DNA of 46,856 nucleotides from Microvenator sp. (GTDB taxonomy: Bacteria; Myxococcota_A; Bradymonadia; Bradymonadales; Bradymonadaceae): assembly GCA_041554035.1 (NCBI GenBank), contig JBFFMO010000001.1:1-46856 (forward strand), read 5' to 3'. Under the pieces are notes generated by a model. The model saw only the letters and a program-made list of their open reading frames with translations. It searched no databases and was not told the DNA's origin. The position numbers and the translations under genes are program-made. Shown one piece after another: positions 1 through 46,856 of this stretch. How positions within the stretch are numbered: the stretch's first letter is position 1; each line of letters opens with the position of its first letter.

Positions 1-133
1 TAATGGTAAATTAGATATAATGCAACAAAATTCTATTGCAAATAATGCAATCAAATTTTTCTTGTATTCTATTGCGTTTAGGGGATATAGTGATTTTAGA
101 GTTGTAAATATTGCAACAGGGGGTAATGCGAAA
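1..133. promoter_or_regulatory. Divergent promoter/operator region of the lysogeny switch
   Basis: With 46684-46715 this forms a 165-bp AT-rich spacer between divergent HTH genes (46426..46683 minus, 134..373 plus). Two 17-bp imperfect palindromes: ATTGCAA-ATA-ATGCAAT (35-51) and GTTGTAA-ATA-TTGCAAC (101-117). Extra TGCAA/TTGCA half-sites, direct repeat ATTCTATTGC (30-39, 66-75), TATAAT (16-21), TTGTAT-N18-TATAGT (62-91). Confidence 0.5.
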
Positions 134-141
134 ATGTCGAA
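1..141. repeat. Exact 141-bp terminal redundancy (copy 1), most simply the overlap of a circular assembly
   Basis: Bases 1-141 match 46716-46856 base for base. The repeat ends 8 nt into the 134..373 CDS, so it cuts a gene rather than bounding an element. Confidence 0.9.
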
Positions 142-373
142 AAGGGAGCCTGTAGTTGAGGAATCTATACAGTTTGGAGCCAATTTGCGGCACCTAAGAA
201 AGACCATAGGTTTGACGCAGCGCGAACTCGGTAGCCGCACCGGAGTTGTATATTCCTCTATATGCCTGTATGAAGCGGGTAAGATGAACCCGACATTGCG
301 TAACATGGTGCTGCTCTGTAAGTTTTTCAACATCTCATTGTCGCGGATGATCAGTGAAGATTTGTCCAAGTAA
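134..373 (+). CDS. XRE/cI-Cro family helix-turn-helix regulator (79 aa), candidate repressor
   Basis: HTH signature LTQRELGSRTGVVYSSICLYEAGK. ATG at 134 preceded by GGGGG. The ORF-track start at 20 lies inside the operator region and is unlikely. Confidence 0.8.
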   Translation: MSKREPVVEESIQFGANLRHLRKTIGLTQRELGSRTGVVYSSICLYEAGKMNPTLRNMVLLCKFFNISLSRMISEDLSK

Positions 374-1069: not shown

Positions 1070-1372
1070 ATGACTTCAGACAAGTATGAGCCAGTACCAT
1101 GCCCCGAGTGCGGCAACGCCAACAGCACGCACGCCTATATGTGCCCACAGTGCGGGAGACCGCTCAAGGAAGCCGACTCTGCAATTTGGCGCATATTGCA
1201 AATGTTTAACATTCTCGGAATCTGCCTCTGCATTTTCGCAGCCATAGCGTCTGGCGGTGGTGACGCGGTAATTATCTCGTTATTTTGGGCGTTGTTGGCT
1301 CTCAGCGCATCACTCGCCGTTCTTTGCGCGATCAGGAAGCCATTGAAAATATTAAGCAGCCCCAAGCAATAG
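1070..1372 (+). CDS. Zinc-ribbon membrane protein (100 aa)
   Basis: CPECG...CPQCG zinc ribbon followed by two hydrophobic helices (ILGICLCIFAAIA, IISLFWALLALSASLAVLCAI). ATG 1070 preceded by GAAAGGAA. Confidence 0.65.
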   Translation: MTSDKYEPVPCPECGNANSTHAYMCPQCGRPLKEADSAIWRILQMFNILGICLCIFAAIASGGGDAVIISLFWALLALSASLAVLCAIRKPLKILSSPKQ

Positions 1373-2581: not shown

Positions 2582-2641
2582 AATAGCCTGTTTTTAGTAC
2601 ATACGGACATAAGTCTTTTAGAATCAACAATCGCCTAACCT

Positions 2642-2686
2642 CTGATAAGCGTGAGGTCGGTGGTTCGAGTCCACCTAGGCCCACCA
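2642..2686 (+). other. attP core: 3' half of a tRNA-Ile(GAU) gene (not a functional tRNA)
   Basis: Anticodon loop CTGATAA, 3' anticodon stem GCGTG, variable AGGTC, T-arm GGTGG-TTCGAGT-CCACC, acceptor TAGGCCC, then A and CCA. No 5' partner: upstream AACCT cannot pair with GCGTG, and no GGGCCTA occurs within 90 nt. Confidence 0.8.
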
Positions 2687-2704
2687 CTAAAAAAGATTCT
2701 GAAA

Positions 2705-2737
2705 CCCCAACAAAACGCGATTTTGTTGGGGTTTTTT
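2705..2737 (+). terminator. Rho-independent terminator
   Basis: Perfect 11-bp stem CCCCAACAAAA / TTTTGTTGGGG, 5-nt loop CGCGA, then TTTTTT. Confidence 0.8.
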
Positions 2738-2778
2738 CATGTCTTGCGGCTTTTTCTGGCTCTTTCCCGTTTTCCAGT

Positions 2779-2818
2779 TAGTGTTCAGTAGTGTTCAATA
2801 ATGTGCATTAGTGTGTGT
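2779..2818. repeat. Array A: four contiguous 10-bp repeats, consensus TAGTGTTC
   Basis: TAGTGTTCAG / TAGTGTTCAA / TAATGTGCAT / TAGTGTGTGT, exact 10-bp phasing. About 95 bp 3' of the attP core and about 60 bp 5' of the cassette promoter. Confidence 0.8.
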
Positions 2819-2875
2819 TTTTTTAGTACATTCTTAGTACTCCTTTAATTCTTTTAATTTTTTTGATTTTTTATA

Positions 2876-2903
2876 TTGACAAGGCGTTTTTTAGTGGTAT
2901 GCT
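2876..2903 (+). promoter_or_regulatory. Sigma70-like promoter of the accessory cassette
   Basis: TTGACA (2876-2881), 16-nt spacer, TATGCT (2898-2903). T/A-rich tract upstream (CTTTAATTCTTTTAATTTTTTTGATTTTTT). Confidence 0.5.
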
Positions 2904-2966
2904 TAAACCCGAGTCGAGGGACAAGAGATTCAACCCCTCGTAAAAACAAAAAGGAGACTCGAAAAA

Positions 2967-3437
2967 ATGACCAGCACAGCAACCAACAAAAAAATCAAAT
3001 CACTCAAGCCGCTTTTAAATACATATCTGGCCACCAGTAAAGAAGCGAAAAAATGGGGCGCAATTATTCGGGCGTTTACTGTCGCGGAATTAAATCGTGT
3101 CGAGTATATGCTCTCGGAAGAATGGGCGGACGACGAAAGGCTTGCAAAACGCATAACTGACCCGAAACTCACATATCTCATGAGTGAAACCGATATAGAG
3201 TTATTCTCTGCGGAACAGCGCGCATACGTTGAAACATTGGGGCTCGAATGGTTGCCGGAAGGGAATTGCCCTGCTTTGTACACTGAAAACGAACAAAGAA
3301 AAGCGGCCCGCGCTATGCTTATCGCGACTGGCAAGGCCTTGGGACTCGACCTTTCGCCCGAAAGCGTTATGATTCTCGGGCCGGAAAAATATCAAGAAAC
3401 CATCGCTTCGGTCGTTGGGTTGATTCAAAACGCATAA
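2967..3437 (+). CDS. Hypothetical protein, accessory cassette gene 1 (156 aa)
   Basis: AAGGAG RBS 10 nt upstream of the ATG. No motif recognised. Confidence 0.7.
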   Translation: MTSTATNKKIKSLKPLLNTYLATSKEAKKWGAIIRAFTVAELNRVEYMLSEEWADDERLAKRITDPKLTYLMSETDIELFSAEQRAYVETLGLEWLPEGNCPALYTENEQRKAARAMLIATGKALGLDLSPESVMILGPEKYQETIASVVGLIQNA

Positions 3438-3454
3438 ATGGGGCAAGACCACCG

Positions 3455-3472
3455 GGGCGGCTTCGGTCGCCC
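3455..3472 (+). terminator. UUCG-tetraloop hairpin between cassette genes 1 and 2 (attenuator or stabiliser; weak U-tract)
   Basis: GGGCGGC-TTCG-GTCGCCC (7-bp stem with one G-T pair), followed by TCTAATATCT. Confidence 0.3.
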
Positions 3473-3501
3473 TCTAATATCTCACAAAAAGGAGAGTAAA
3501 A

Positions 3502-3834
3502 ATGATCAACTACAGAGGCAACGAAAACGGTAGAATCAGAATCGAAGCAGACAGCGTGCAAGAGTTTGTCGAACGCTATCAGCCGGACGGATGCACCACC
3601 TGCAACTACGACGAAGAAACCGGCTTCATCGCATTCGAAAACGAGCACGTCAAAATCTACCCCGTGCGCGTTGGTGCAAGCGGACTCGGACCCGGAACAA
3701 TAAGATGGCAATGGTTCGACGAACGCAGACCCGATTGCTCCGAATCTGCCGACCCAAAAGCCAGACGCGCACGCAAAGGCTTCACGCAAGCGACCGCGCA
3801 AAAAGCATGGGATTTCGCACGGGGGAATAAATAA
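3502..3834 (+). CDS. Hypothetical protein, accessory cassette gene 2 (110 aa)
   Basis: Strong RBS AAAGGAGAG upstream. Basic C-terminal tail. No family recognised. Confidence 0.7.
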   Translation: MINYRGNENGRIRIEADSVQEFVERYQPDGCTTCNYDEETGFIAFENEHVKIYPVRVGASGLGPGTIRWQWFDERRPDCSESADPKARRARKGFTQATAQKAWDFARGNK

Positions 3835-3835
3835 A

Positions 3836-4030
3836 ATGGCTAAAGCAGGACGACCAAAAGCAGAGACCAAAAAGACCTTCAAGACAATCGGGGTGACCAG
3901 CGAACTGCTCGACAAGTTCGACCGCATAAGTGTCCAGGTACAGGCCAAGCGGGGGCAGATATACAAACGCCCGGAACTACTGGAACTCGCGCTGGATGCT
4001 TTGGCGGAGAGGGAGGGGGTTGAGTTATGA
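3836..4030 (+). CDS. Putative ribbon-helix-helix (CopG/Arc/omega-like) DNA-binding protein (64 aa)
   Basis: Basic N-tail (AGRPKAETKK), predicted beta-strand KTIGVT, then two helices (SELLDKFDRIS, RPELLELALDALAERE). Starts 1 nt after the gene-2 stop and overlaps gene 4 by ATGA. Confidence 0.55.
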   Translation: MAKAGRPKAETKKTFKTIGVTSELLDKFDRISVQVQAKRGQIYKRPELLELALDALAEREGVEL

Positions 4031-4440
4031 AGACACCAGGGAGCAGCACCATAGAAGGGCTTCGCTCACCCATCTCTGTCATGGAGTTTGTGGGCAGGAA
4101 TATCTATAAAAATGGGTCGTGGCGCATGACCGACATTGAAGAGGTTCTTGATGTCATTGAGAAAATGGTACACGACTTCTTTCATAAAGCAGGGCCACCC
4201 ATTAAACGAGACCGGCTGTGCATAATCACGTCGCCCAGCATGTGGGAGTTGATTAAAGTCAAAGCCGTAGATAGTAATGGAAGGCCAATTTGTCTACAAC
4301 ATGATGAATCATTCAGGGGGATTGCCGTAATTTGTGACAAACGATTCATAGTCCCCGGCGGCGGGCGATTGTCGTTGGTGCTTTGCGAAAAAAAAGGTCA
4401 CGACTTCTTGTTAGAGAATTCCGCCGGGGTTCTTTACTGA
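4027..4440 (+). CDS. Hypothetical protein, accessory cassette gene 4 (137 aa); possible HK97-fold capsid-like fragment
   Basis: ATGA-coupled to the RHH gene. IITSPSMWELIKVKAVDSNGRP...FRGIAVICDKRFIVPGG recalls the nP-x-x-W...kD-x-x-Gr...l-G-x-PV pattern of HK97-family capsid C-termini (from memory, not searched). Confidence 0.6.
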   Translation: MKTPGSSTIEGLRSPISVMEFVGRNIYKNGSWRMTDIEEVLDVIEKMVHDFFHKAGPPIKRDRLCIITSPSMWELIKVKAVDSNGRPICLQHDESFRGIAVICDKRFIVPGGGRLSLVLCEKKGHDFLLENSAGVLY

Positions 4441-4910
4441 GGCCAGCACAGCCGCCCAGACCTAAGCGTTTCCGCAATACGCCCGGCACGTTCGGGCGTT
4501 TGCTCTTTCGCCCACCGGCTGTCAAGTGCCTCGGTCGCCGCCTCTGACCAGTTCCGAGCGTCCACCGCTGCGCACATCCTCCGGAAACCCGCCACGCCCC
4601 CCCGCCCGAGTTGAAAGATCATCGAGAGCAGAGCGATCCGGCGCGGGATGTTGATCCCGTCCGGGGAGAACAACAGCCGGAAGTCCTGCTTGATTTGCGC
4701 GATCTCGGTTTCGTGGACGGCGTAGATGCGAAGCAGGGGCCACTGGTCGCCAACCTGGTACTTCTCGCACTCCGCCTTGCTCAAGAGGTGGCCGATCCCG
4801 ACCGTGGGAAACTCAAGCGAATCGAGATAAACCCGCTCCCGCAGCCCCTCTTCGGCCAGTAGATGCGCCCGCAGGTTCCCTTCAAAAACACCTTCTGACA
4901 TCTCGCTCAT
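4434..4910 (-). CDS. Endolysin, GH24 (T4-type) lysozyme
   Basis: AEEGLRERVYLDSLEFPTVGIGH has the T4-lysozyme catalytic spacing E-9-D-6-T. No N-terminal hydrophobic segment. ATGA-coupled to the upstream lipoprotein gene. Confidence 0.85.
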   Translation of the reverse strand: MSEMSEGVFEGNLRAHLLAEEGLRERVYLDSLEFPTVGIGHLLSKAECEKYQVGDQWPLLRIYAVHETEIAQIKQDFRLLFSPDGINIPRRIALLSMIFQLGRGGVAGFRRMCAAVDARNWSEAATEALDSRWAKEQTPERAGRIAETLRSGRLCWPQ

Positions 4911-5203
4911 GGTTGTATCCCCTTTCCTTGAGCAGCCAAGCGGGCGATCAGAGCCACCAGGTCGGCTTGCGCCTTAGCGTTCTCTTCGGTCGACCGGGTG
5001 ACTTTCAGGCGGTTCAGGGTGTTGGTTCCTTCGTCGAGCCACTCGTATTCGATATCGAAGCCGCTCTCGCGTGAGACAAAAGCCGCCCCGCGCTCGTGTA
5101 TCCGTCCGGCAACTGTACCGTCAGGGCGCAGGGCCTCGGCTGTAAAGGATGTGCAGCCGCTCGCGGCGAGGGCCAGCAGGACTATCGAGATGGCTTTTCG
5201 CAT
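4907..5203 (-). CDS. Lipoprotein (98 aa)
   Basis: MRKAISIVLLALAASGC is a signal peptide with lipobox LAASG-C. AGGA RBS. The ORF-track N-terminal extension to 5464 is Arg/Pro-rich out-of-context sequence. Confidence 0.65.
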   Translation of the reverse strand: MRKAISIVLLALAASGCTSFTAEALRPDGTVAGRIHERGAAFVSRESGFDIEYEWLDEGTNTLNRLKVTRSTEENAKAQADLVALIARLAAQGKGIQP

Positions 5204-5502
5204 TGATTGTTTTCCTGTCCGTAGTGAGACGCTCCGAAGATGCGGACGGCGCGATAGTATGCTCTGGCCCGCCACCAGGCGCGGATGCGTCCGATCCCGC
5301 CTTCGCGCAGGGTTTGGTAGAGGTGCTTGCGAAAGTCGATGTCGGCCTGTTTGCGGGAGATGCGAGCCTCGGCGTAGTTGCGGTCGTGGAAGTAGCAGCA
5401 TTGGCCGATATAAACACCACAGAGGCTGTCGGGTACGACGCAGGAAAATCCTTTTCCGCCGCACCAGTCGACCCTGGTATCAAAGGGAGGGAATGTCGTC
5501 AT
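5182..5502 (-). CDS. DUF1353-like protein with a CC-x2-HD-x2-Y motif (106 aa)
   Basis: CCYFHDRNY...SRKQADIDF...AYYRAVRIFG matches the HD-x2-Y...R-x2-AD-x2-F...AVR-x-FG pattern recalled for DUF1353. AAAGGAG RBS. Confidence 0.6.
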   Translation of the reverse strand: MTTFPPFDTRVDWCGGKGFSCVVPDSLCGVYIGQCCYFHDRNYAEARISRKQADIDFRKHLYQTLREGGIGRIRAWWRARAYYRAVRIFGASHYGQENNQCEKPSR

Positions 5503-5516
5503 GGCTGCGCTCCTTT

Positions 5517-8500
5517 CTACAGCAGGCTCGGGCCTTCGGCGTAGCCGGTTGCGCCGTTCTGGGGTAGTTCCGGGCCGTCGTTCAGGCTGGCCTCGTCAAT
5601 CTGAACGTGGACGGCACCGAGGTTGATGCCGGAATAAGAAAGGAAGGCGATGGAATAATCGAAAACAAGGCTGCTGTCGATAATGAGGCCGTTGCTGTCT
5701 GTGTCGGCTGTGCCGGAAAACGACAGAAGCCACGAGTCGAAGACATCCTGAAGGCTCACGCTTGTTGGATTGTCAATGCCTGGCCCCAGGGTTCCAATGG
5801 CGTACTCTGCGCCCTCGTGCAAATGATCCAACAAATATTTGATTATCTCTGTGACGTCTACCGTCCCGCGATAGGAGTAAACGCCTGTCGTGATTTCCAC
5901 CTTAGTCAGGCCACTGGTTGGCACGGCCACCGACACGGGGGTGTAGCCGGTGACATCGCCATACTCATCGCGAGACACCTCAAACATGACCGTGTGCAGG
6001 GCGATGTAGTCCAGCGTGGAAGGTGTTGACCATTCTGCCGATCCGCCCGTGCGGTCTACATGCCCCGACTCTTCATAGATAGTTGCGCTCGTCAATTCGA
6101 GTTCTACCCATGCAAGAGCAATGTTGCTTGAGGCGAACCGGCGCAGATTACTTGGAAGGCCGAAGCCTACCAAGCCAGTCGAGGCCGAAAGAGTGATGCC
6201 GCCTTCGTCCGCAATTTGGCCGATGCCAATGCTGCCACCGCCAGAGCCATTCGGGAGACATCCGGACGAATCCCAAGGCACGGGAGGGGAGGTTAAAGCA
6301 TAGTTTGCCTTGGTAAGGCTAACGCCGGTCGCGCTGGATGCCCCCGCGTTGAGGTCATAGCCAAACACCGTGTAGTTCTGACTGTCGATAACCGCAGTAA
6401 ATGTCACGCCCCCGATCCCGCTCCCGGCATAGGGAGCCCCGGCATTGAACCAGCCAACGACGACCGCCGTGGTGAGGCAGCGATCCAGCGCGAGCATGTT
6501 CTCGACCGGGTGATTGGTGCGGGTGTCGTAGACGGTCATTTCGGCGTAGAGATTGTACTCGCCAGAGATCCACGCGCTCGCGTTGATGTAGAAAATGCCG
6601 TCCACCGGGTCATAGATGAAATCGTTCTCGCTGACGGCAGTGGCCACGCCGCCGGTCACGCGCTTCAGGGTCGGGGCGTAGCCGGTCGCGGTCCCTTCGT
6701 AGTCAATGGCCGGGGGGCTGATAGCGGAGTGCATCACGCTTGCGAGGGTCACGCCGGTGCCGTCGATGTCGCCAAGATTCTGGAACAGTTGGCCGTTGCG
6801 CCCTTCCAGCGAGCAGATCACCACGTCGCGCTTGTTGTAGTTCGCCCGGGTGAAGTCGGGAATACCGGTGGCGTGAACGGTGGGGGCGATCGCGCTGGTG
6901 TCCGCCGCCCCTGCGTAGGCTTTGGCCGCGAGTACTTGCAGGGCCACGCCATCGATGCCGGTGAAGGTCAGGACGTCGCCGGGGTAGACCTTGGCCTGCC
7001 GGTCGCCGATGCGGGTGCGCGAGACCTTCCAGTTGGTAATCTCGTGTGCGATATCCGGGGCGACCACATTCCCCGCGAAGTGGCAGTATTGCGTCTTGCG
7101 TTCATATTCTGTCCCGTTGAATTCGTCGTAAATCAACTGCACTTGCTGCGGCGCGAACTCCAACTGAATAAGACCGGGGCCGATCAGGGTCGCGGTGGCC
7201 ACCGTGCCAACGACGCTCTTGGTCTGGCGCGTCTTCGGCTCGAAAACGGTCTCGTCGAACCGGGGCACTTGCCACTTGATCGTATAGAGCCACGGCGTGC
7301 CAGGCGAAGCAACGGGGGCCATCTCCTGAGTGGCGTCGTAAACGGTCAGGCTCGTGCGCTCATCGTTGAGCAATAGCGTGCCGTCTCCCGGCAGGTCGAA
7401 CTTGCGCGAGGCAAAGGTCTTGTTGACTGGCACCTGATGCATGTAGTCGCCCTGCCCGTCCAGAGAGGGCTTCAGGCTTCTCGGCATCACTCCTTGAATC
7501 CGGCGCGGCAGGCCAGCCTCGTGGGAGTAGCCAGGAGTGCGGTCGGCATCATCCACCAAAGCGCGGCTGGCGGACGTGGCCCCCGCTGGATCGGTTTTGA
7601 CGTTGCTCTGCGCAATGGCGTCGAGGATGCCGACCGCGTCGCTTTCGGGCTGGCTGTTGACCCGAAACTTTTGCTGGTACTCGCGGAAGTTCAGGAACTC
7701 GTCGTACCCATCGACAACGTCCTGCGTCCGGTAGCGCAGATAACCCTCACCCCAGAAATCTTTGTACAGCCCTTGACCTGTTGAGATTTCATAAAGCCCC
7801 TCGGGATAATAGCCAACCGGAAGGCCGAGCAACATCCACAGGCCCGTGAAGTCTTCGCGCCCGACGCGCCAGAAAAGATGCTCGAACAATGCGGATTCCG
7901 GGGCGGGCAATGGGTTCTTGCCGATCTGTCGCAGGTAGAGCCCCCGCGCCAAGAAAAACAGGCTGTAGTGCGCCGGGGCCGGGTAGTAGGGATCGTACGC
8001 CTCGTACAGCGGGCAGGCGGTGTTGTTGCACCGTTCCTTGTATTCCGAAAGGTCTACCGTGGGCTGATCCAGTTTGCCGCAATGGAACTGGCCATCTATG
8101 CCCGCCGATGCGGGGGCGGTCGGGTAGGCGGCTTTGTACGACGGGAACAGGTTGCCTTCCCGCTCGACAGAGAACTTGCACGGCAGGGGCGACGGGACTT
8201 CACTTGGAGAGAGCGACAGCGCGACGAAAGGAACTGAGGCAGGCTGTACCTGCTCGCGTAGCAGATACAACTTGTCTTCGCGGGTCGGGTCTAAAGGGCG
8301 GGAAAGGGTGAGAACTGCTCCGTGGGTTCCGCCGCTCTCTCCAAGAAAAGTCACGTCCAACACTTGTGCGGTGCCGTACTGCCCCCACCGGTCAGCGCGT
8401 ACCACGTCGCCCGGCATGATGCTCGTGGGGTTGCCGCCGTTGATGCTGCGATCCAGCGCACGGGGGTCGCCTATCACGAGGCTGTAGGTGCATTCGCAGC

Positions 8501-9191: not shown

Positions 9192-11377
9192 TCCCCCTCG
9201 AAGTACACCAGACGGCTGCTGCTGCCACTTCCGCCTTTTTTCTTCGGAGTGCGGTCGGGCAGGTTGCCGGTGCGGGCCTGAAGTTTTGCAATGTCTCCGC
9301 GCATCGCCTTTATCTCTTTGGCCACCGCGCGCGGCCCACTCATGCCGGGGAACTCGACCAGCCCCGCCAGTTGCGCCACATCTATTTCGAGGTAGCCAGT
9401 CTGGATCGTGGTGGTCTGGCTCCGATGCTGGAAGTTCCAACTCTTGTGCGTGACGACCGTCCCGATTGAATGGCTCTCGCTCGATTGCAACACGCGGCGG
9501 ATATAAGTGCCGATGGGTGCGCTCCCGCCGATTCCCTTCACTGTCAGGTTCAAGGTCTGGCGTTTCTGCCCATACCACGCCATCGCCAGTGCGGCCACCT
9601 GTCGCAGGATCGGCGAGTCATCCCGCACGACTCCGCCCGCGTGATGCAGCAATGCGCCGTCCTTCACGCCGGTGACGGTTTGCGGGACGACGTACTGCGC
9701 CAGCGCATCCTCGACCGGGATCACGAGCGTCTCGGTCGGTGCGCCTGTTTGCGGGCGGCCCAGACTCGCCACCACGCGCAAGGTTTCGTCGCTCTCGAAA
9801 GATACGGTTGCCAGAAGGTTCTCATAGTCCACCACCGCCTCGGTGTCGCTCTGAACCATTGCGGGATCTGTGTCGAAATGGTTCAGGCCCAGAACATGGT
9901 TGATGTCGGCTGCGGTCTCGATGGCAAACTCCGTGTCTGTCATGCGCACCTGTGCCGTGCCGGTCTCTCCGGTTTCGATCTGCCGGTATGTCGTGCCCTC
10001 TTTCACCAGAACAAGCGGCTCCTGATACTCCGGGTCGGCCCCGGTCACGCTCGCTGGTTTCTTGAACGGGATCGTGCGCAGAAACGCCTTGCCATTAAAC
10101 AGCGAGTTGGCGGCGGCGGCAGTGTCCAGCGTGCCGTCGTCTTTCACCGTGGGCACCACGAGCCGCTTGGTCGATCCGAACGTCCCGTCGCCCGCCTTGA
10201 AGTTCCAGTCGCGCGGAACGCGGTGGTGCTGATAAACGCGCGGAAGGCGTGCCTGGCGTTCCTGATCGTTCAGCGCGGCGTCGGTCGTGTTCGCCATGTC
10301 GCCGAGGCTGTTGTAGAGCGTTTCCTCGGCAGCCGTCCACCCGCGCTCCAGTGTCCCTTCGGCGTAGGACAGCGAGCAGCACACCTGCACCGGCTGGCCA
10401 TGCACCTCGATGCGGTCGACCTGCTTCGCGCTCGATTCCTCAAAGGTCGCACTCTCGATGTTGCGATTGTCGGCCACGGGGATGCTGTCGATAATTCGCG
10501 AGTTGCCTGGCAGTGAAACGTTCAGGATGTTCAGCCCGTCGCCAAGCAGAGAAAAAACGTGGACATACACCGCGCCCGAGCCGCTCGTCTCCAGATTCCA
10601 CCCCATACCAAACTGGCGGGGGATAAGGTGGTCGAGGGCTTGCGCCAGCGTCAAACCGCGCAGCCGGTGCACGTCGGTAATGTTGGCCAGCATCTCGTAT
10701 TCGCCCGACAGCCCGCAGTACATCCCCTCGGGGGCGTGATAAACGAGGAGGTTTTCCACCACCTGCTGGTTGTTCCACACCTCATCGCCGCCGAAGACGT
10801 AGGCTTCCTCGACCTGCCCGGTGATCTCTACTTCCACGCCGACCTTGGCCGCTGACCGGTTGCCCACCAAACGCGGGCCGCCGTGACCGCCAGCCGTGTT
10901 GAAGTCCGGCATTCGGTTGATGCGGTCGGCTGGCCCCGATGCCGGGACAATGTAGGAGTGATTCAATGCCACGCGGTCAAAAATCTTGATCAGCCCCCAG
11001 GCGCGAATAGTCTGCATGCCGCTAACTCGTGCCGCGTCACTGCCGTCGACAGACTGGCCGCTGGTGGATATTTGCCCGTGCCACAGCGTTTCAGTTGGAC
11101 TCCCCGGCGTATGGCTGCGGATTTGCACGAACATCCTGTCGAGGTTCAGAGGAGTGTAAACGCCTTCGCGGGTTTCGCCCGGCTGCACAATGGCGCCGTA
11201 GCGGTAGAGGAACTCTGCGCTCCCGGCGAACGAACCGGCTGACCCATTGGCCGACTGCGGTTCGAGGTAGGAAAGCAGCGTCCACTCGTCGAACCACCGG
11301 GCTTTCACCCACGCAGTGACATACGCCTCTTGCAGGGCGGCGTCGGTTTCGGGCGGTGCGATCTGGAAAAGAGTCAT
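9185..11377 (-). CDS. Large tail structural protein (730 aa)
   Basis: Long ORF, ATGA-coupled on its 5' side. Position within the tail operon. No motif recognised. Confidence 0.7.
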   Translation of the reverse strand: MTLFQIAPPETDAALQEAYVTAWVKARWFDEWTLLSYLEPQSANGSAGSFAGSAEFLYRYGAIVQPGETREGVYTPLNLDRMFVQIRSHTPGSPTETLWHGQISTSGQSVDGSDAARVSGMQTIRAWGLIKIFDRVALNHSYIVPASGPADRINRMPDFNTAGGHGGPRLVGNRSAAKVGVEVEITGQVEEAYVFGGDEVWNNQQVVENLLVYHAPEGMYCGLSGEYEMLANITDVHRLRGLTLAQALDHLIPRQFGMGWNLETSGSGAVYVHVFSLLGDGLNILNVSLPGNSRIIDSIPVADNRNIESATFEESSAKQVDRIEVHGQPVQVCCSLSYAEGTLERGWTAAEETLYNSLGDMANTTDAALNDQERQARLPRVYQHHRVPRDWNFKAGDGTFGSTKRLVVPTVKDDGTLDTAAAANSLFNGKAFLRTIPFKKPASVTGADPEYQEPLVLVKEGTTYRQIETGETGTAQVRMTDTEFAIETAADINHVLGLNHFDTDPAMVQSDTEAVVDYENLLATVSFESDETLRVVASLGRPQTGAPTETLVIPVEDALAQYVVPQTVTGVKDGALLHHAGGVVRDDSPILRQVAALAMAWYGQKRQTLNLTVKGIGGSAPIGTYIRRVLQSSESHSIGTVVTHKSWNFQHRSQTTTIQTGYLEIDVAQLAGLVEFPGMSGPRAVAKEIKAMRGDIAKLQARTGNLPDRTPKKKGGSGSSSRLVYFEGEW

Positions 11378-11658
11378 TGCAGAATACCTTTCACATCGCG
11401 CTGGATTTCAGCGATCCAACCTTCGTGTCCCTTGCATCGTTCTTCGATTGCCGCGAAATGTGCATCATGCCGCTGTATGGCGGCTTCGTGTTCGTCCTGC
11501 TTTATGCCGCTGGTCAAAACTGCTGCTTTCAAGGCGTTGAACTCCCCGAACAGTTTCCCTAATGTAAAAATCAGGCATGCAACACTGGCGATGTTGGCAA
11601 AAGTAAAAACAAGTAGGGCAATCACTGCCTCAAGATGATCGGCGATCCATTGAAGCAT
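11374..11658 (-). CDS. Small membrane-anchored coiled-coil protein (94 aa)
   Basis: One N-terminal hydrophobic helix (AVIALLVFTFANIASVACLIFTLGKLF) and a charged helical C-terminus. TAATG and ATGA coupling to both neighbours. Confidence 0.65.
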   Translation of the reverse strand: MLQWIADHLEAVIALLVFTFANIASVACLIFTLGKLFGEFNALKAAVLTSGIKQDEHEAAIQRHDAHFAAIEERCKGHEGWIAEIQRDVKGILQ

Positions 11659-13574: not shown

Positions 13575-13577
13575 TGC

Positions 13578-13874
13578 TTACGCCCTCCCGTCGGCGAGCA
13601 CTTCGCCCACATGAAGGTTGACAATATTCTTGCCGCCGCTCCAATCGCCAAGCGTATAGAAGGGCTGGAGTTGATACGTTCCGACCTCGTCCAAATCGCC
13701 AGCCTGAACCGTGTATTCCATCGTGTTAGCGTCGACGATCTCAAGAGTTTCCCAAGCCACCACGGCTCCTGACTGCTTCTGAACACGCACATATTGATCC
13801 GTGGCGTTGGTAATATCTTCAGAGAAGGTGAAGGCGATCACAGTCCCAATGTCATTTTTTCGCGCGTGCGGCAT
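13578..13874 (-). CDS. Hypothetical virion-module protein (98 aa)
   Basis: ATG 13874 lies 2 nt after the upstream stop. Sequence looks beta-rich. Confidence 0.6.
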   Translation of the reverse strand: MPHARKNDIGTVIAFTFSEDITNATDQYVRVQKQSGAVVAWETLEIVDANTMEYTVQAGDLDEVGTYQLQPFYTLGDWSGGKNIVNLHVGEVLADGRA

Positions 13875-13876
13875 TA

Positions 13877-14098
13877 TCAGTTTCCTCCCACAAATTCAAT
13901 TCGTTCTGGTGTTGGTTCCATGTTGAAAGACGCGGTGCGAGAGTTGCCAACCGACAAGGCAACCCGTTTGCTGGACGTATCTACAGGCAGGGCCACCCGA
14001 ACGGCTGGTTCATTGCCGGTGGCATCCAAAAAAAAGCCAAACGATCCAGCAGTGTAGCCAGTGGCGGAAGGAAAGAAACCGTAGACGCTTTGGATCAC
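13877..14098 (-). CDS. Hypothetical virion-module protein (73 aa, GTG start)
   Basis: GTGA overlap with the upstream stop. Confidence 0.5.
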   Translation of the reverse strand: MIQSVYGFFPSATGYTAGSFGFFLDATGNEPAVRVALPVDTSSKRVALSVGNSRTASFNMEPTPERIEFVGGN

Positions 14099-32898: not shown

Positions 32899-34221
32899 TC
32901 ATTCTGTCTCATTTTTGCTATCCTTCCGTAATACAAGCCCCTTGGAAACGACCATTTCGGGGTGCTTGATCAAGTATCTCCTGACCGTCTTCTCTGCTAC
33001 CCCCATCGTCTCCGCAAGGTCTTCCGTGGTCACTGCTGGCCCTTCCGAGAGGCATGCTTTGTACGCCTCGCTCAGTGCCTCGTTCTGTTCCTTTTGGCGT
33101 TCCTTGACGCTCTTCTTCGGCTTAGCATTCTTCTGCCACGGAGCCTCTTCGCCCTCCGCCTTGGCATCCTTCAGAAGCGAATATCGGTCATCGGAGTGGA
33201 TGGGGTAGCGGAAGAATATCGACTTCGGCGGCATGGTTGGGAACTCGCGCAGAGTGGTCTCCACGCGCCAGCCTGACGCCAGTGTCGCCGCTTCCCGGAT
33301 GATGGGCCGATATTGCCTGACAGCGTCCGCAAGGCCATTCATCTCCGCCCAGGCTATAAGGTCGCGAGAAACGACCGTGTTGTCCTGTGGGCAGGTGTCG
33401 CGCCAATTTGGGCTAACGTGGTCGAAGGCATTGCTCAGTCCGTGGCATTCCCACGAGTTGACAATCTGGTATCGGCGGGCATCGTCGATGTTGAGTTCGA
33501 TCAGGTCCACGATGGCGTCGGGGTCGCGGGAGAACACGCCAGAGCCAGAGGAGCGGTCTCGACTGCTCTTTTGCCCCTGCGTACCTTTCGAATGGTGGTG
33601 GCAGTAGATGGTCGCTGCCCCGAGTTCCTTGCAAATCCGGTCGAATTGATTGCAGAACTTCGCCATCTGCTCCGCGCTGTTCTCGTCACCGGTCAGGACT
33701 TTGTATATGGGGTCAATGACCACGGCGGCATAACGCTTTTGCAGGGCTCTGCGGATGAGTTTAGGCGCGAGCCTGTCCATGCTGGTCGCATTGCCCCGGA
33801 GATTCCACACGTCCAACATGCCGGGGGTTCGCTTTATTCGCAGGGCCTCGTATATCTTCCAGAATCGGTGCCGACAGGATCGCTCGTCGAGTTCGAGGTT
33901 GACATACAGGACGCGGCCCTGCTTGACCGGCCACCCGAGCCACGTCCCGCCTTCCGCAAGGGCTACGCACAACTGCATAAGGGCAAATGATTTCCCGGCC
34001 TTGCTTGGCCCGGATAGTAGCATCTTGTGCCCTTCGCGGAGTAGGCCGTCAATCAGGCACGGCGCCAGTTCTGGCTCTTTTTCGTCGATGCTCAACTCTT
34101 CGATGTCCGGGAGATCGTCGTTCAGGTCTTCAACCCAATCATGCCATTCTTTCCAGGATGACTTGCCAACGTTGGTGCCGATCAGGTATTGCCGGTTGCC
34201 CCCCCGTACGATGCCAGGCAT
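32899..34221 (-). CDS. RepA/DnaB-like replicative ATPase (AAA_25-like) with C-terminal HTH (440 aa)
   Basis: Walker A LLSGPSKAGKSF, Walker B AAVVIDPIYK, RecA-like core. C-terminal TTEDLAETMGVAEKTVRRYL HTH. Confidence 0.7.
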   Translation of the reverse strand: MPGIVRGGNRQYLIGTNVGKSSWKEWHDWVEDLNDDLPDIEELSIDEKEPELAPCLIDGLLREGHKMLLSGPSKAGKSFALMQLCVALAEGGTWLGWPVKQGRVLYVNLELDERSCRHRFWKIYEALRIKRTPGMLDVWNLRGNATSMDRLAPKLIRRALQKRYAAVVIDPIYKVLTGDENSAEQMAKFCNQFDRICKELGAATIYCHHHSKGTQGQKSSRDRSSGSGVFSRDPDAIVDLIELNIDDARRYQIVNSWECHGLSNAFDHVSPNWRDTCPQDNTVVSRDLIAWAEMNGLADAVRQYRPIIREAATLASGWRVETTLREFPTMPPKSIFFRYPIHSDDRYSLLKDAKAEGEEAPWQKNAKPKKSVKERQKEQNEALSEAYKACLSEGPAVTTEDLAETMGVAEKTVRRYLIKHPEMVVSKGLVLRKDSKNETE

Positions 34222-34272: not shown

Positions 34273-35121
34273 TCAGGTGCAAACGTCCCACAGAAAATCA
34301 ACGCGCTTTCGGTACTCCTCGATTGTATCCGCGTCAATTTTGACGATTGCGTGGATTGATTTTCCACCGGAGTGCACGATTGCAGCGCACGGCAGTTCCA
34401 GTTCGCGGATAATGGCGTACTGCTTCGGCATTGGAATTTCGTCACTTTCGACCAAGGCATATCGGTGAGAAGTGACGTTATCGTCGCGGACTCCGGTGCC
34501 GTTCATGGGATTGAATCTGATCCATGCACCAGCCTTGGGATCGGCATCGCCAATCACGCGCCCCACATTTCCGCCACATTTGCCAAGTTGCTCGATAAGT
34601 TGCCCGGCTGTCCGGTCATAGGCACCCATTCCCTTTGGAAGGTATTTGCCTTTTGCTTCATTTAGCCAGGATTCAACGTTGTACGAAACTTTTTCATCTG
34701 ATTGAAATAGCGTTGACAGGTAAGACATGAGGTCTTTAACCGGGTTCCAACTCGGGCCAGGGTCGGGGATTTCGGAATCTTGCAACCAATCGGCGTCAAT
34801 GATGCGGAGGTCTTTGCCGGACACACACACATCCTCATTCCATCCAAGCGAACGGCCTTCTTCTCTGGGCGGCTTCCATCCTTGGGCCATTGCCATCTTT
34901 GCCAGTGATGCCACGGTGATTGGCTGCGCCGATCCGTGGAAGGATTGCCATTTCTGGTGGCAATCTCCCTCCCGGTATCTGGCCGGGTCGCGTCGGCTCC
35001 ATGCGTCCCACTGATCGGGGGATAGGCCTGCGTCCTTCAGCGCCATCCCGGCATAGAGCCACTCCTCGTACTGGAGTTGGCTTGGGTCTATGTGATTGAG
35101 CATTTCGAGTGCTTCAGACAT
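34273..35121 (-). CDS. Archaeo-eukaryotic-type primase-polymerase with N-terminal PriCT-2-like domain (282 aa)
   Basis: N-terminal W..AGMALKDAG...WDAWSRRDPARY....C..KW.SF (PriCT-2 pattern). YALVESDE (acidic motif) and HSGGKSIHA (sG-x-G-x-H AEP motif). Confidence 0.6.
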   Translation of the reverse strand: MSEALEMLNHIDPSQLQYEEWLYAGMALKDAGLSPDQWDAWSRRDPARYREGDCHQKWQSFHGSAQPITVASLAKMAMAQGWKPPREEGRSLGWNEDVCVSGKDLRIIDADWLQDSEIPDPGPSWNPVKDLMSYLSTLFQSDEKVSYNVESWLNEAKGKYLPKGMGAYDRTAGQLIEQLGKCGGNVGRVIGDADPKAGAWIRFNPMNGTGVRDDNVTSHRYALVESDEIPMPKQYAIIRELELPCAAIVHSGGKSIHAIVKIDADTIEEYRKRVDFLWDVCT

Positions 35122-44295: not shown

Positions 44296-44373
44296 TTACA
44301 TACGTTTTAGGTCAATCATGGCCCCTACTGCGAAAAATATGCATGCGGCTATTAGCCAGAGTTGCGTTGTCAT
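44296..44373 (-). CDS. Candidate 25-aa hydrophobic micropeptide
   Basis: MTTQLWLIAACIFFAVGAMIDLKRM. The ATG overlaps the stop of the upstream gene (ATGA). Below the ORF-track size cut-off. Confidence 0.3.
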   Translation of the reverse strand: MTTQLWLIAACIFFAVGAMIDLKRM

Positions 44374-44810
44374 AGCCCCGCCCTTCGGTACAGTTCCGAG
44401 ACCGTGATCCCGAGCGCGTTAGCCAGTGCGGTGATATGCTCGCGGTTCAGTGGCTTCTCGCCCCGAATCAGTTTGTAGTAGTACGACTCGCCGATCCCGA
44501 TCAGACTGGCCAGTTGGGCCTTGGTTCTGATCCCTGCCTCAATGCGCAGTTTGTCGATCACGTCGAACAGGAAGAAATTCTGGCGCAGCACGTCCGGGGT
44601 TGTGCCGTCTATCTTCTTGGCTTTCTTTTTGGTCGGCTTCTCGGAGTCTTTCCACCCTGCGCACAGTGCCTCAACTGAGCAATGCGGCCCCACCAGCCGC
44701 CCGCACTCGCACTGTAGGACAAGGTGGTCATTGACCTTGTGCAGCGTCGCGGTTGTCGCGCCGCAGGTGCAGGGGTCGAGGTTCTCGTTTACTCCTGGCT
44801 TGATGTTCAT
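44370..44810 (-). CDS. Lar-like zinc ribbon fused to an XRE-type HTH (146 aa)
   Basis: N-terminal CTCG...CECG...ALCAGW. C-terminal TKAQLASLIGIGESYYYKLIRGEKPLNREHITALANALG HTH. Confidence 0.6.
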   Translation of the reverse strand: MNIKPGVNENLDPCTCGATTATLHKVNDHLVLQCECGRLVGPHCSVEALCAGWKDSEKPTKKKAKKIDGTTPDVLRQNFFLFDVIDKLRIEAGIRTKAQLASLIGIGESYYYKLIRGEKPLNREHITALANALGITVSELYRRAGL

Positions 44811-46425: not shown

Positions 46426-46683
46426 TCACACGCCAACAATGTCGGTGTGGTCTTTGCTTTTCATGCCCAACGCTCTTGCGGCCTGTGCCATATCTCGCAA
46501 AGTCCATTTGGTTTCACCCTTCAACAATCGCGTGACGCGGCCTTTTTCCCAACCGGCGCGGCGCGCGAACTCTGTTTGCGTCCACTTGCGCTTGGCTATT
46601 TGTTGTCCAATGAAACGGTTGTAGCGCACTTCTTCGGGCAACAGTTGTTTGCTTTTCGTCACTTTTCGTTCTCCGTTAGTCAT
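46426..46683 (-). CDS. Cro-like HTH regulator, first gene of the early (lytic) operon (85 aa)
   Basis: WTQTEFARRAGWEKGRVTRLLKGE HTH. Divergent from the 134..373 gene across the operator region. Confidence 0.75.
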   Translation of the reverse strand: MTNGERKVTKSKQLLPEEVRYNRFIGQQIAKRKWTQTEFARRAGWEKGRVTRLLKGETKWTLRDMAQAARALGMKSKDHTDIVGV

Positions 46684-46715: not shown

Positions 46716-46856
46716 TAATGGTAAATTAGATATAATGCAACAAAATTCTATTGCAAATAATGCAATCAAATTTTTCTTGTATTCTATTGCGTTTAGGGGA
46801 TATAGTGATTTTAGAGTTGTAAATATTGCAACAGGGGGTAATGCGAAAATGTCGAA
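46716..46856. repeat. Exact 141-bp terminal redundancy (copy 2)
   Basis: Identical to 1-141. Ends with the first 8 nt (ATGTCGAA) of the 134..373 CDS. Confidence 0.9.

Follow-up and report, generated by a model that had tools for sequence, protein, structure and literature searches.

A predicted phospholipase A2 and a lipoprotein encoded beside the endolysin of a temperate phage, a possible route for breaking host membranes

How does a phage with a cytoplasmic endolysin open the membranes of its host if its genome shows no holin or spanin gene? The question is raised by a temperate phage that occupies the whole of the 46,856-nt stretch of DNA analyzed here (the window), which is a complete circular genome with an exact terminal repeat of 141 bp. 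A module of three genes closes its late operon, and the first-pass annotation had described this module as a lysis cassette in which neither a holin nor spanins could be recognized. Since no ordinary holin or spanin was found in the genome, and since a phospholipase A2 (PLA2)-lipoprotein pair like that of the module recurs in unrelated phages, the pair may be an undescribed phage route for breaking host membranes. In the available part of the spanin literature, only one alternative is described for the outer-membrane breach by spanin-less phages (about one in seven), namely the disruptin. A lipid-hydrolyzing enzyme acting with a lipoprotein would, if true, be a second and mechanistically different answer.

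Organization of the module and its endolysin

The three open reading frames lie on the minus strand, at exactly the coordinates and lengths first given for them. The first gene encodes the 106-aa PLA2-superfamily protein (5182..5502), the second a 98-aa lipoprotein (4907..5203, counted from an internal ATG of ORF 4907..5464), and the last a T4-type (GH24) endolysin of 158 aa (4434..4910). They are coupled by overlaps, as had been proposed: the lipoprotein ATG (5203) lies 22 nt inside the PLA2 gene, and the lysozyme ATG and the lipoprotein stop overlap as ATGA (4907-4910). On the 5' side, the TAG stop of a 1225-aa virion/tail gene (5517-5519) is separated from the PLA2 ATG at 5502 by a minus-strand spacer of 14 nt (5503..5516), which contains the Shine-Dalgarno sequence AAAGGAG. 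The spacer has no terminator, so the cassette is read together with the late operon, and its placement at the operon's end stands. No promoter-like site was found before the lipoprotein gene. Judged by the homologues of the PLA2 and the lipoprotein and by the Pfam match of the lysozyme, all three ORFs are real genes. An upstream GTG start for the lipoprotein (5464) was rejected, because it would add 87 residues, rich in Arg and Pro, that come from reading the PLA2 gene out of frame; this start is also contradicted by the homologue in a related viral locus (L014), which begins at the equivalent Met.

The lysozyme matches the Pfam family Phage_lysozyme (PF00959) with 36.4 bits (cut-off 22.3; E 7.6e-9), and its best solved match is T4 lysozyme (E 3e-20), to whose residues E11, D20 and T26 the predicted catalytic residues E21, D30 and T36 align. 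Its N-terminus (MSEMSEGVFEGNLRAH) has no hydrophobic segment, and the Kyte-Doolittle value stays below 1.2 in every 19-residue window. The enzyme would thus be of the cytoplasmic, holin-dependent class and not a SAR or signal-peptide endolysin, which supports the earlier view that it has neither a signal sequence nor a SAR segment and requires a path across the inner membrane. Scans for related loci with the lysozyme returned just unrelated loci at 34% identity, and the contig index has no record of it.

A predicted phospholipase A2, a lipoprotein and the search for holin and spanins

The 106-aa protein, which had been taken for an inert soluble DUF1353-like protein, instead belongs, to judge from its family profile and catalytic residues, to the PLA2 superfamily, and is of the bacterial/fungal group XIV PLA2 / DUF1353 type, with predicted activity. 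It has no signal peptide and a pI of about 9.3. Among 60 of its relatives (n = 177), 27 match Pfam Phospholip_A2_3 (PF09056), 12 match DUF1353 (PF07087) and 3 match PLA2G12. The DUF1353 label therefore holds at the level of the family, but not for the protein itself, which has no PLA2 or DUF1353 match in Pfam at E <= 0.1. The family profile matches the PLA2 structures 4aup (4e-14), 1faz (2e-12), 8k1w (1e-11) and 7ygk (1e-11). The predicted catalytic His/Asp/Asp set is intact (H39, D40, D54) and, like C14, invariant across alignments of 60 and 65 sequences; C36 is the other conserved Cys. An AF2 model (pLDDT 77) has helices at residues 33-45, 50-67 and 72-90, and its top three Foldseek matches are PLA2s (4aup and 8k1w among them), with probabilities of 1.00, 0.99 and 0.91 and TM of about 0.5, but with E-values of only 0.04-0.3. 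Given this superfamily membership, the cassette does carry a candidate membrane-attacking partner. A word-index homology search with the protein returned the query alone, and tblastn with the protein or the family consensus gave no match in 50,697 phage records.

The secreted group XIV PLA2s of Streptomyces violaceoruber (1faz/1lwb) and Tuber borchii (4aup) share the predicted fold and the catalytic residues (profile matches of 4e-14 to 1e-11), but they are secreted with signal or pro-peptides and contain two disulfides; the phage protein lacks an export signal and retains one Cys pair at most. The closest known system is TtaP, through which DUF1353 was shown experimentally in 2024 to be a PLA2, with sn-2 phospholipid hydrolysis demonstrated, and whose authors note prophage DUF1353 homologues (PMC11525133). 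Like the window PLA2, TtaP is small, lacks a signal peptide, has a catalytic His with an adjacent Asp and a further Asp 15 residues downstream (H70/D85, the same spacing as in the 106-aa protein), and is encoded beside a phage-type signal-less muramidase, TtsA of the Salmonella typhoid-toxin islet (PMC11525133). The two also differ. Of the four disulfide cysteines, the window family retains two (C14, C36) and TtaP none; among relatives of the window protein, matches to Phospholip_A2_3 outnumber those to DUF1353; and the window PLA2 adjoins a lipoprotein, whereas the TtaP literature consulted reports no such partner (PMC11525133). TtaP serves toxin biology and not virion release, and has so far shown no phenotype (PMC11525133).

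The lipoprotein has the signal MRKAISIVLLALAASG/C, with lipobox LAASG/C and Thr at +2, and is predicted from these features to be sorted to the outer membrane. It is the sole lipobox ORF of the complete genome. Its mature part (81 aa) is acidic, with 2 Pro and 0 Cys, and the signal peptide is its sole hydrophobic segment. Since a C-terminal TM is absent, the lipoprotein is not a u-spanin, as had been argued; nor is an i-spanin embedded in or adjoining its gene, the neighbors being the PLA2 and lysozyme genes. The further argument against an o-spanin, from the length and low Pro content of the protein, is weak, because T4-type o-spanins, in the accessible part of the literature, are long and not Pro-rich. 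What the lipoprotein does share with o-spanins is the lipoprotein signal, and what is missing is an embedded, overlapping or adjacent i-spanin gene. One homologue was found, P0265 of L014, where the gene order is the same; identity is 66% for the whole protein and 72% for the mature part. Scans with the lipoprotein alignment gave no match in metagenome, viral and genome collections, and the AF2 model has a low pLDDT (49.7).

Holin and spanin families (Pfam, PHROG, NCBIfam) matched none of the small proteins of the genome. Because the window is a complete circular genome, the statement that no conventional holin or spanin gene was found holds genome-wide, within the sensitivity of the hydropathy and lipobox scans and of the family libraries. 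A whole-genome census of membrane proteins gave one lipoprotein, one late-operon single-TM protein and one two-TM Zn-ribbon protein, and no multi-TM protein in the late operon. The first-pass annotation had said that no 2-3-TM protein adjoins the cassette, which is the case. Cassettes without a recognizable spanin are, however, not rare: the available part of a spanin survey reports none in 91 of 677 phages of Gram-negative hosts. ORF 2930..3334(-), with a strong C-terminal hydrophobic segment, was set aside as a low-complexity, Ser-rich frame antisense to a better ORF, 2967..3437(+).

The late operon's sole small TM protein, of 94 aa (11374..11658, minus strand), has one N-terminal TM (about residues 11-33), in agreement with the earlier call, and a helical, charged C-terminal part with one Cys (C74). 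Its gene lies between those of 638-aa and 730-aa virion proteins and is translationally coupled on both sides. It has no family match and no homologue by tblastn in 50,697 phage records, and BLASTP revealed no similarity to lambda Rz or to N-terminal-TM proteins encoded beside PLA2 genes elsewhere. The other protein first called single-TM (1070..1372, beside the integrase on the lysogeny side) has a zinc ribbon followed by two TM segments, and searches of phage records with it returned zinc-ribbon noise alone. The genome thus offers neither a small TM protein adjacent to the cassette nor a holin family match, and by topology alone the choice is between 11374..11658 (1 TM) and 1070..1372 (2 TM). 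By elimination, the 94-aa protein is the best holin candidate; it might alternatively be an i-spanin or an ejection protein.

PLA2-lipoprotein pairs in other phages

L014, the only known relative, has tail gene, PLA2, lipoprotein and lysozyme in the order of the window. It is 32% identical to the window at the tail C-terminus, 72% in the lipoprotein and 44.5% in the GH24 lysozyme, and its PLA2-family protein is recognized by hhalign (97.8%, E 1e-12) at an identity below 30%. Several independent phages have similar layouts. In L007 the order is tailspike, PLA2, lipoprotein, two TM proteins and GH108 endolysin, and in L137 it is lipoprotein, PLA2, TM protein and Hydrolase_2 endolysin. The Mu-like cassette of L194 has GH108, lipoprotein and PLA2 genes that overlap by 4 and 1 nt, and here the pair occupies the slot where Mu has spanins. 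L214 has a two-TM holin-like protein, a 139-aa protein, lipoprotein and PLA2; phage FNU1 has DUF1353, a two-TM holin-like protein and an amidase. Holin-like two-TM genes adjoin the PLA2 gene in L016 as well as in these last two. In L140 and L011 the PLA2 gene lies two to three genes past the endolysin, and in L139 it is the first gene after Mor.

PLA2-lipoprotein pairing and PLA2-endolysin adjacency both occur in unrelated phages far above chance. We surveyed 49 non-redundant viral loci (IMG/VR), spanning about +-5 kb around the PLA2 gene. An adjacent same-strand lipoprotein ORF is present in 10 of the 49, compared with 0.29 expected (35-fold; Poisson 7e-13). All eight matches to a panel of peptidoglycan hydrolases in these loci fall within 600 nt of the PLA2 gene (chance about 1e-7), and such hydrolases make up at least 9-11 of the 94 immediate PLA2 neighbors, versus 3 of the 92 genes one position further out. 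The partner lipoproteins share no homology with one another; most of them are acidic, and most of the PLA2s basic. In nine of the ten PLA2-lipoprotein loci, no i-spanin-like gene lies beside the lipoprotein.

A lipoprotein neighbor is present for only about 20% of phage PLA2 genes, and the genes are not restricted to lysis regions. They follow the tail fibers in the window, L007, L137, L182 and L210, lie between gpG and protease in L009 and, with a lipoprotein, between TerL and adaptor in L015; occurrences in head/tail modules and among early genes (L009, L015, L004, L005) indicate that the family is not dedicated to lysis. Locus L220 is of bacteriocin type, with an ABC exporter, a PLA2 with a double-glycine leader and a lipoprotein, and other relatives carry bacteriocin leaders or form the C-terminus of Rhs-like or giant proteins.

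The TerL of the phage is at most 35% identical to that of any phage record, PHROGs and Pfam have no match for most of its virion proteins, and the 730-aa protein has none in viral and genome collections. We infer a diderm host from just two things, the kinds of relatives and the domain-less T4-type lysozyme. Megablast of positions 2600-12000 returned a tRNA fragment alone. The att fragment corresponds to the 3' part of tRNA-Ile(GAU), which is identical across many phyla.

Proposed role in lysis and competing explanations

The reading that we prefer, with a probability of roughly 45%, is that the lysozyme cuts the wall, and the PLA2 and its lipoprotein partner handle the membrane step normally done by spanins. 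Late in infection, lysozyme and PLA2 would build up in the cytoplasm, where the PLA2 would be harmless, being kept from the periplasmic leaflets and having a conserved Cys pair like the disulfide cysteines of secreted PLA2s. A hole-forming protein, for which the 94-aa protein is the only late-operon candidate, would open the inner membrane and admit both enzymes to the periplasm. There the lysozyme would degrade the murein, and the PLA2 would hydrolyze phospholipids of the outer membrane's inner leaflet and the inner membrane's outer leaflet to lysolipids and fatty acids, which would rupture the outer membrane, the job of spanins in most phages of Gram-negative hosts. The lipoprotein would be the periplasmic partner of the PLA2. 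It might be an immunity-type inhibitor, which would buffer the enzyme or hold it in check, or a tether, which would bring the enzyme to the outer membrane; the inhibitor is somewhat more likely.

In favor of this lysis role are the identities of the three proteins, their coupling in the late operon, the gene order of L014, the independent layouts, the survey and the census of membrane proteins. There is precedent for a third lysis step without spanins in the disruptin and in the lipolytic LysB of mycobacteriophages; spanins are what about 13-15% of phages lack according to the accessible part of the literature, and the authors of the TtaP study favor a role in outer-membrane perturbation (PMC11525133). 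Against it, deletion of TtaP gave no envelope phenotype, TtaP is dispensable for toxin secretion, and 4 h of overexpression in E. coli gave minor growth differences, with lysis not reported (PMC11525133). Also against it are the PLA2-like genes outside lysis modules, the low share of PLA2 genes with a lipoprotein neighbor, and the L220 lipoprotein, which is most simply an immunity protein and fits a toxin-immunity pair at least as well, as is the naming of the holin by elimination. The 72% identity between the window and L014 lipoproteins, set against less than 30% for the PLA2s, is also hard to square with a tight enzyme-partner pair. We are doubtful of the wider proposition that a PLA2 and a cognate outer-membrane lipoprotein form a widespread, previously unrecognized two-gene system for the last lysis step, which would replace spanins enzymatically in some of the spanin-less phages of Gram-negative hosts (roughly 13-15%, a share taken from the same partly available source), and would be the evolutionary source of TtaP-TtsA.

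In the main rival explanation, PLA2 and lipoprotein are a toxin-immunity-type pair outside host lysis. The PLA2 would either be packaged in the virion and loosen membranes during entry, or serve as a weapon once lysis sets it free; the lipoprotein would neutralize it in phage-carrying cells, as superinfection exclusion or protection from lysis from without; and adjacency to the lysozyme would arise solely from the shared end of the late operon. Comparable pairs are T4 Spackle with the gp5 lysozyme and Tli lipoproteins with the Tle phospholipases of T6SS; in these, as in bacteriocins and their immunity proteins, an envelope-degrading enzyme without export signal has a diverse adjacent periplasmic or lipoprotein partner. 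In those systems a secretion machine or a virion brings the enzyme in from outside, whereas the window pair sits in a late lysis context. Acidic, non-homologous lipoproteins facing basic PLA2s are typical of immunity proteins, an optional immunity gene would be expected with only a minority of PLA2 genes, and the 35-fold recurrence with a diverse periplasmic partner, the bacteriocin leaders and Rhs-like contexts, the PLA2 genes in structural modules or after tail fibers, and the tail-protein annotation of PHROG 1158 members all point the same way. Against this, the strong endolysin adjacency persists in Mu-like phages, in which lysis and tail genes are widely separated; the phage PLA2s consist of the catalytic domain alone, without a translocation or virion-attachment domain; a lipoprotein coupled in the late operon is poorly placed for expression in a lysogen, no promoter-like site having been found upstream of its gene; and, in the comparison of the window with L014, conservation of the lipoprotein greatly exceeds that of the PLA2. 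We consider this explanation unlikely. Improbable, too, is an unlinked two-component spanin, with the 94-aa protein as i-spanin, the 98-aa lipoprotein as o-spanin and the PLA2 accessory or unrelated. The genome's only lipoprotein does have the outer-membrane-type +2 residue, and the 94-aa protein combines an N-terminal TM with a C-terminal part that is helical and charged. With C74 the pair would have the periplasmic Cys (at least one) that 507 of 528 spanin pairs possess in the available part of the survey, even though the mature lipoprotein has none and the topology call is weak; a long, Pro-poor o-spanin would have T4-type parallels, as far as that literature is accessible. Between the two genes, however, lie 6 kb and two giant genes, whereas spanin genes in the available survey text are embedded, overlapped or adjacent, with about 700 bp as the largest gap described. 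The charge flanks of the 94-aa TM weakly suggest N-out/C-in, the opposite of an i-spanin, its soluble part is short (about 60 aa), the surveyed PLA2-lipoprotein loci nearly all lack an i-spanin-like gene, and no holin would be left over.

A very improbable variant has the PLA2 in place of the holin, attacking the inner membrane from the cytoplasmic side and releasing the lysozyme, with no dedicated holin. It would account for the absence of a canonical holin from the complete genome and for the position directly after Mor in L139, and the typhoid-toxin islet, for which no holin is known, likewise has a signal-less muramidase and a DUF1353 PLA2. The match of C14/C36 to the disulfide cysteines of secreted PLA2s argues instead for activity outside the reducing cytoplasm, and FNU1, L016 and L214 have holin-like genes beside the PLA2. 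The minor growth differences on TtaP overexpression in E. coli, and its dispensability for TtsA-dependent secretion, also speak against it (PMC11525133). We give the least credence to the lipoprotein being a Cor/Llp-type receptor-masking exclusion protein without a tie to the PLA2, the gene order being coincidental. As the best-conserved gene of its region it would fit binding of a conserved host component, and exclusion lipoproteins are often encoded beside tail or receptor-binding genes, but the window lipoprotein gene begins inside the PLA2 gene, and the two kinds of gene are neighbors in unrelated phages 35 times more often than expected.

The proposed lysis role would parallel, in Gram-negative hosts, that of mycobacteriophage LysB, a signal-less lipolytic enzyme encoded in the lysis cassette beside the endolysin, which attacks the outer lipid layer last. 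LysB is a cutinase-like alpha/beta-hydrolase, an esterase whose target in mycolata is the mycolyl-arabinogalactan link; its fold is unrelated to that of the window PLA2, and it has no lipoprotein partner. Spanins (lambda Rz/Rz1, T4 PseT.3/PseT.2, the u-spanin T1 gp11) resemble the cassette in that an outer-membrane lipoprotein is encoded beside the endolysin. Unlike them, the window lipoprotein has no adjacent or embedded i-spanin, no periplasmic Cys and no C-terminal TM, and the product of its partner gene is a soluble enzyme in place of a membrane-anchored coiled coil. The disruptin (phage phiKT gp28) is likewise a non-spanin factor that disrupts the outer membrane in a spanin-less phage, but is a cationic peptide that acts physically, whereas the candidate here is an enzyme with a lipoprotein (bioRxiv 10.1101/515445). 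If true, the lysis role would also provide a testable hypothesis for TtaP, the sole typhoid-toxin-islet gene without an assigned biological role. For annotators, the recurrent PLA2-lipoprotein pair is a recognizable unit; DUF1353/PLA2 genes in phages are now annotated as 'hypothetical', 'tail assembly chaperone' or 'DNA binding protein'.

Three overlapping genes at the end of the late operon

The cassette consists of three minus-strand genes, whose coordinates are exactly those of the first-pass annotation: 5182..5502 (106 aa, a phospholipase A2 (PLA2)-type protein), 4907..5203 (98 aa, a lipoprotein) and 4434..4910 (158 aa, a lysozyme). The upstream 1225-aa virion gene ends at 5517 and is followed by a 14-nt spacer containing AAAGGAG, with the ATG of the PLA2-type gene at 5502. 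The lipoprotein gene starts 22 nt inside the 106-aa gene, and the lysozyme start overlaps the lipoprotein stop codon (ATGA), so that the coupling by overlaps described earlier holds for all three genes. No terminator-like site was found between the late operon and the cassette. The lysozyme gene also overlaps a convergent plus-strand gene (4027..4440) by 7 nt, and the plus-strand unit's only terminator-like hairpin (4479-4499) lies inside the lysozyme gene's 3' end.

The 158-aa protein passes Pfam Phage_lysozyme, and among solved structures it is closest to T4 lysozyme (E 3e-20), whose catalytic residues E11, D20 and T26 align with E21, D30 and T36 of the phage protein. A hydrophobic N-terminus is absent, so this is a cytoplasmic endolysin that requires an inner-membrane hole, which bears out the original view that it needs a permeabilising partner. 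The lipoprotein has the signal MRKAISIVLLALAASG immediately before the lipobox C, and Thr occupies position +2; after processing it is 81 aa long and acidic, with two Pro, no Cys and no C-terminal transmembrane (TM) segment.

The 106-aa protein is basic (pI 9.3) and lacks a signal peptide. Pfam does not name it directly as a PLA2 and a word-index search returned only the protein itself, while an exhaustive phmmer search found 177 relatives. In an alignment of 60 of these, C14, H39, D40 and D54 are invariant, and Pfam matches are to Phospholip_A2_3 (27/60), DUF1353 (12/60) and PLA2G12 (3/60). The family profile matches solved group XIV PLA2s (4aup, 4e-14; 1faz, 2e-12; 8k1w and 7ygk, ∼1e-11). 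An AlphaFold model (pLDDT 77) has a three-helix core whose three top Foldseek matches are PLA2s, although support at the fold level is weak; membership in the PLA2 superfamily is seen at the levels of family profile and catalytic residues. TtaP, a DUF1353 protein encoded beside the muramidase TtsA in the Salmonella typhoid-toxin islet, was shown in 2024 to be a true PLA2 with catalytic H70, D71 and D85 (PMC11525133), and its His-to-Asp spacing of 15 residues is the same in the phage protein. Two of the four disulfide-forming cysteines of secreted PLA2s have counterparts in C14 and C36, from which we infer that the phage protein folds or works best outside the reducing cytoplasm. The initial description of a soluble DUF1353-like protein was thus correct at the superfamily level, but its PLA2 relatives and catalytic residues make this protein a candidate membrane-attacking enzyme rather than a bystander.

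Membrane-related products of the complete genome

Bases 1-141 of the window recur exactly at its end (46716-46856), which makes the window a complete phage genome, circular or terminally redundant, with a unique length of 46,715 bp, and “missing” lysis genes cannot hide outside it. The junction is flanked by a divergent repressor/Cro-like gene pair (20..373, plus strand; 46426..46683, minus strand). The plus strand carries regulators, a Zn-ribbon membrane protein and an integrase, directly 3' of which is an attP-like site (2642-2739) comprising the last 45 nt of tRNA-Ile(GAU), including CCA, with a strong hairpin terminator behind it (2698-2739). Because many phyla share the tRNA part unchanged, it says nothing about the host; the sole megablast match, to Thermus phage P23-77, is likewise due to it. 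A single long minus-strand transcription unit starts with replication genes, continues with terminase, portal, protease and capsid and leads through many orphan virion proteins to the cassette. The phage is itself an orphan, with a TerL ≤35% identical to any phage record. No family assignment was found for most virion proteins, and the large ones (378, 231, 638, 730 and 1225 aa, in a minus-strand run within 5517-15824) have no PHROGs or Pfam match. In size, the 730-aa and 1225-aa proteins are reminiscent of the internal ejection proteins known from T7-like podophages; nothing resembling a tape-measure protein was recognised. The primase-helicase occupies two minus-strand ORFs 51 nt apart (34273..35121 and 32899..34221), corresponding to the N- and C-terminal parts of phrog_2597 (7-283 and 303-745); the split could be natural or reflect a frameshift or sequencing error.

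When all ORFs of the complete genome are scanned for hydropathy and lipoboxes, five membrane-related products remain, and Pfam, PHROGs and NCBIfam give no holin or spanin family match for any of them. One is the cassette lipoprotein, the only lipobox ORF on either strand with any start codon. The 94-aa protein (11374..11658, minus strand) has one N-terminal TM segment, and its gene is translationally coupled to both neighbours, the 638-aa and 730-aa virion genes; no homologue was detected in phage records, nor any similarity to TM proteins near PLA2 genes elsewhere. A 100-aa protein (1070..1372, plus strand) has an N-terminal zinc ribbon, a basic tail and two TM segments in the hydropathy scan, rather than the single one first assigned. 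Its topology is like that of a class II holin, yet its gene belongs to the lysogeny side, where an XRE-type regulator and the integrase flank it; a role in exclusion or abortive infection is possible. The fourth is a 600-aa fibre-like protein (16100-17902, minus strand) with Laminin_G_3 and a C-terminal Peptidase_S74 chaperone domain; its apparent cleavable Sec-type signal peptide (MKAFISIFVILFALCIGAIATA, followed by DE) is an odd feature in a protein that is built into virions inside the cytoplasm. The last is a very hydrophobic 25-aa mini-ORF, MTTQLWLIAACIFFAVGAMIDLKRM, in the early region (44296-44373, minus strand), which starts on the stop codon of a repressor-like gene (44370..44810; ATGA) and may encode a small membrane peptide.

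Spanin, u-spanin and holin assignments fail on those defining features for which a test was possible. The observation made in the first-pass annotation is confirmed, and its interpretation is partly supported: the scans of the complete genome revealed neither a conventional holin nor a conventional spanin, but the cassette does have a membrane-active candidate, the PLA2-type protein. Genomes lacking spanins are fairly common: a spanin survey counts 91 of 677 as spanin-less, and another estimate for phages is ∼15%. Lysis factors outside the cassette are also known, as with Lcc6 of LambdaSo.

PLA2-type genes beside lipoprotein and endolysin genes

The cassette lipoprotein has a single homologue, on a 1.5-kb contig (L014) where the gene trio is conserved: a tail-protein C-terminus (32% identical) is followed by a PLA2-family protein, the lipoprotein (72%) and a GH24 lysozyme (44.5%). 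The PLA2-family protein is 148 aa long and <30% identical to the 106-aa protein (hhalign 97.8%, E 1e-12).

The association of PLA2-type genes with lipoprotein and endolysin genes is non-random. At 70% identity, 79 IMG/VR loci spanning ±5 kb fall into 49 clusters, of which 10 have a lipoprotein ORF next to the PLA2 gene and in the same orientation, versus 0.29 expected from the seven such ORFs in the remaining 436 kb of these loci (35-fold enrichment; Poisson P ∼7e-13). The partner lipoproteins are mutually non-homologous and mostly acidic. All eight matches to a small panel of peptidoglycan (PG) hydrolases are encoded on the strand of the PLA2 gene and ≤600 nt from it within the ±5 kb loci, a ninth match being an uncharacterised protein. 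By Pfam, the 94 immediate neighbours include GH108 (three), Phage_lysozyme and Amidase_2 (two each), Amidase_3, Hydrolase_2, Peptidase_M15_4/VanY and CHAP (one each) and one holin, versus PG hydrolases in only 3/92 at the next position out. This difference is borderline by Fisher's test (P = 0.05 for 11 hydrolases, 0.13 for 9, the lower count allowing for proteins with matches to two families). Other annotated neighbours are mostly head or tail proteins (Mu protease, gpG, sheath, capsid, adaptor, terminase), so the family is also found in structural modules, and its genes sometimes lie among early genes (loci L004, L005, L009).

Similar arrangements recur in phages unrelated to this one. Marine locus L007 (42 kb) has a tailspike, PLA2, lipoprotein, two TM proteins, a GH108 endolysin and a TM protein; prophage end L137 has a lipoprotein, PLA2, TM protein and Hydrolase_2 endolysin; and Fusobacterium phage FNU1 has DUF1353, a two-TM holin-like protein and an amidase. 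In Vibrio phage 1.097.O, a lipoprotein gene overlaps the gene annotated “phospholipase A2 domain protein”. Mu-like elements L011, L013, L139 and L140 carry the PLA2 gene within the Mor-to-terminase lysis region, and L194 has overlapping GH108, lipoprotein and PLA2 genes in the slot where Mu carries spanins. The bacteriocin-type locus L220 (protein P0048) encodes an ABC exporter, a double-glycine PLA2 and a lipoprotein. The PLA2 domain is a toxin module in this and other relatives (P0007, P0011, P0015, P0021, P0049, P0025, P0054, P0121), some with double-glycine bacteriocin leaders, others as the C-terminus of Rhs-like or giant proteins.

A possible outer-membrane step and its alternatives

We propose, with a probability of about 45% for the scheme as a whole, that the PLA2 and its lipoprotein partner act at the outer-membrane step of lysis. 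Lysozyme and PLA2 would build up in the cytoplasm until a hole-former, for which the 94-aa protein is by elimination the best candidate, admitted them to the periplasm. The lysozyme would then remove the wall, and the PLA2 would break inner-leaflet phospholipids of the outer membrane down to lysolipids and fatty acids, so that this membrane fails. Spanins perform this step elsewhere, and LysB of mycobacteriophages is functionally like the role proposed here. Outer-membrane perturbation is also the role favoured for TtaP by its authors (PMC11525133). The lipoprotein would be the periplasmic partner of the PLA2; as the L220 lipoprotein is most simply an immunity protein, we lean towards a buffering inhibitor rather than a tether. 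Two observations fit every scheme poorly: the lipoprotein is far better conserved than the PLA2 between this phage and the 1.5-kb contig, and a lipoprotein gene adjoins only ∼1/5 of phage PLA2 genes.

Bacteriocin and Rhs relatives, diverse partner lipoproteins and PLA2 genes in structural modules would also suit a toxin-immunity pair, or an entry enzyme with an exclusion protein, unrelated to lysis. We consider this main alternative rather unlikely; it is weakened by the tight adjacency of PLA2 to endolysins in Mu-like phages and the coupling of the cassette to the late operon. An exclusion lipoprotein of Cor/Llp type with no relation to the PLA2 is contradicted by the 35-fold enrichment of adjacency, and this is the most improbable reading. 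Direct replacement of the holin by the PLA2 is nearly as improbable, since TtaP overexpression is tolerated and TtaP is dispensable for TtsA-dependent secretion (PMC11525133).

A two-component spanin split between the 94-aa protein and the lipoprotein is improbable. With one Cys in its soluble part, the 94-aa protein is compatible with the Cys rule that 507/528 spanin pairs follow, but its flanking charges weakly suggest an N-out/C-in orientation, unlike an i-spanin. The lipoprotein had been considered too long and too Pro-poor for an o-spanin; these are weak grounds, as T4-type o-spanins lack a proline-rich region. The stronger argument, also made at first, is that no i-spanin gene is embedded in, overlaps or adjoins the lipoprotein gene.

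DUF1353 proteins have been noted in prophages (PMC11525133), and one Vibrio phage gene (1.097.O) already carries a PLA2 annotation. Neither a phage role for DUF1353/PLA2 proteins, nor the PLA2-lipoprotein pair, nor enrichment beside endolysins was described in the literature that we searched. We thus class the cassette, from its sequence, as a putative lysis cassette with a lipolytic membrane-step enzyme, which is not categorically new. Two PLA2-family entries are misannotated: a gene of Thiohalocapsa phage LS06-2018-MD03 (L016, OP947165, 3980-4399) is called a “DNA binding protein”, and PHROG 1158 is labelled “tail assembly chaperone”.
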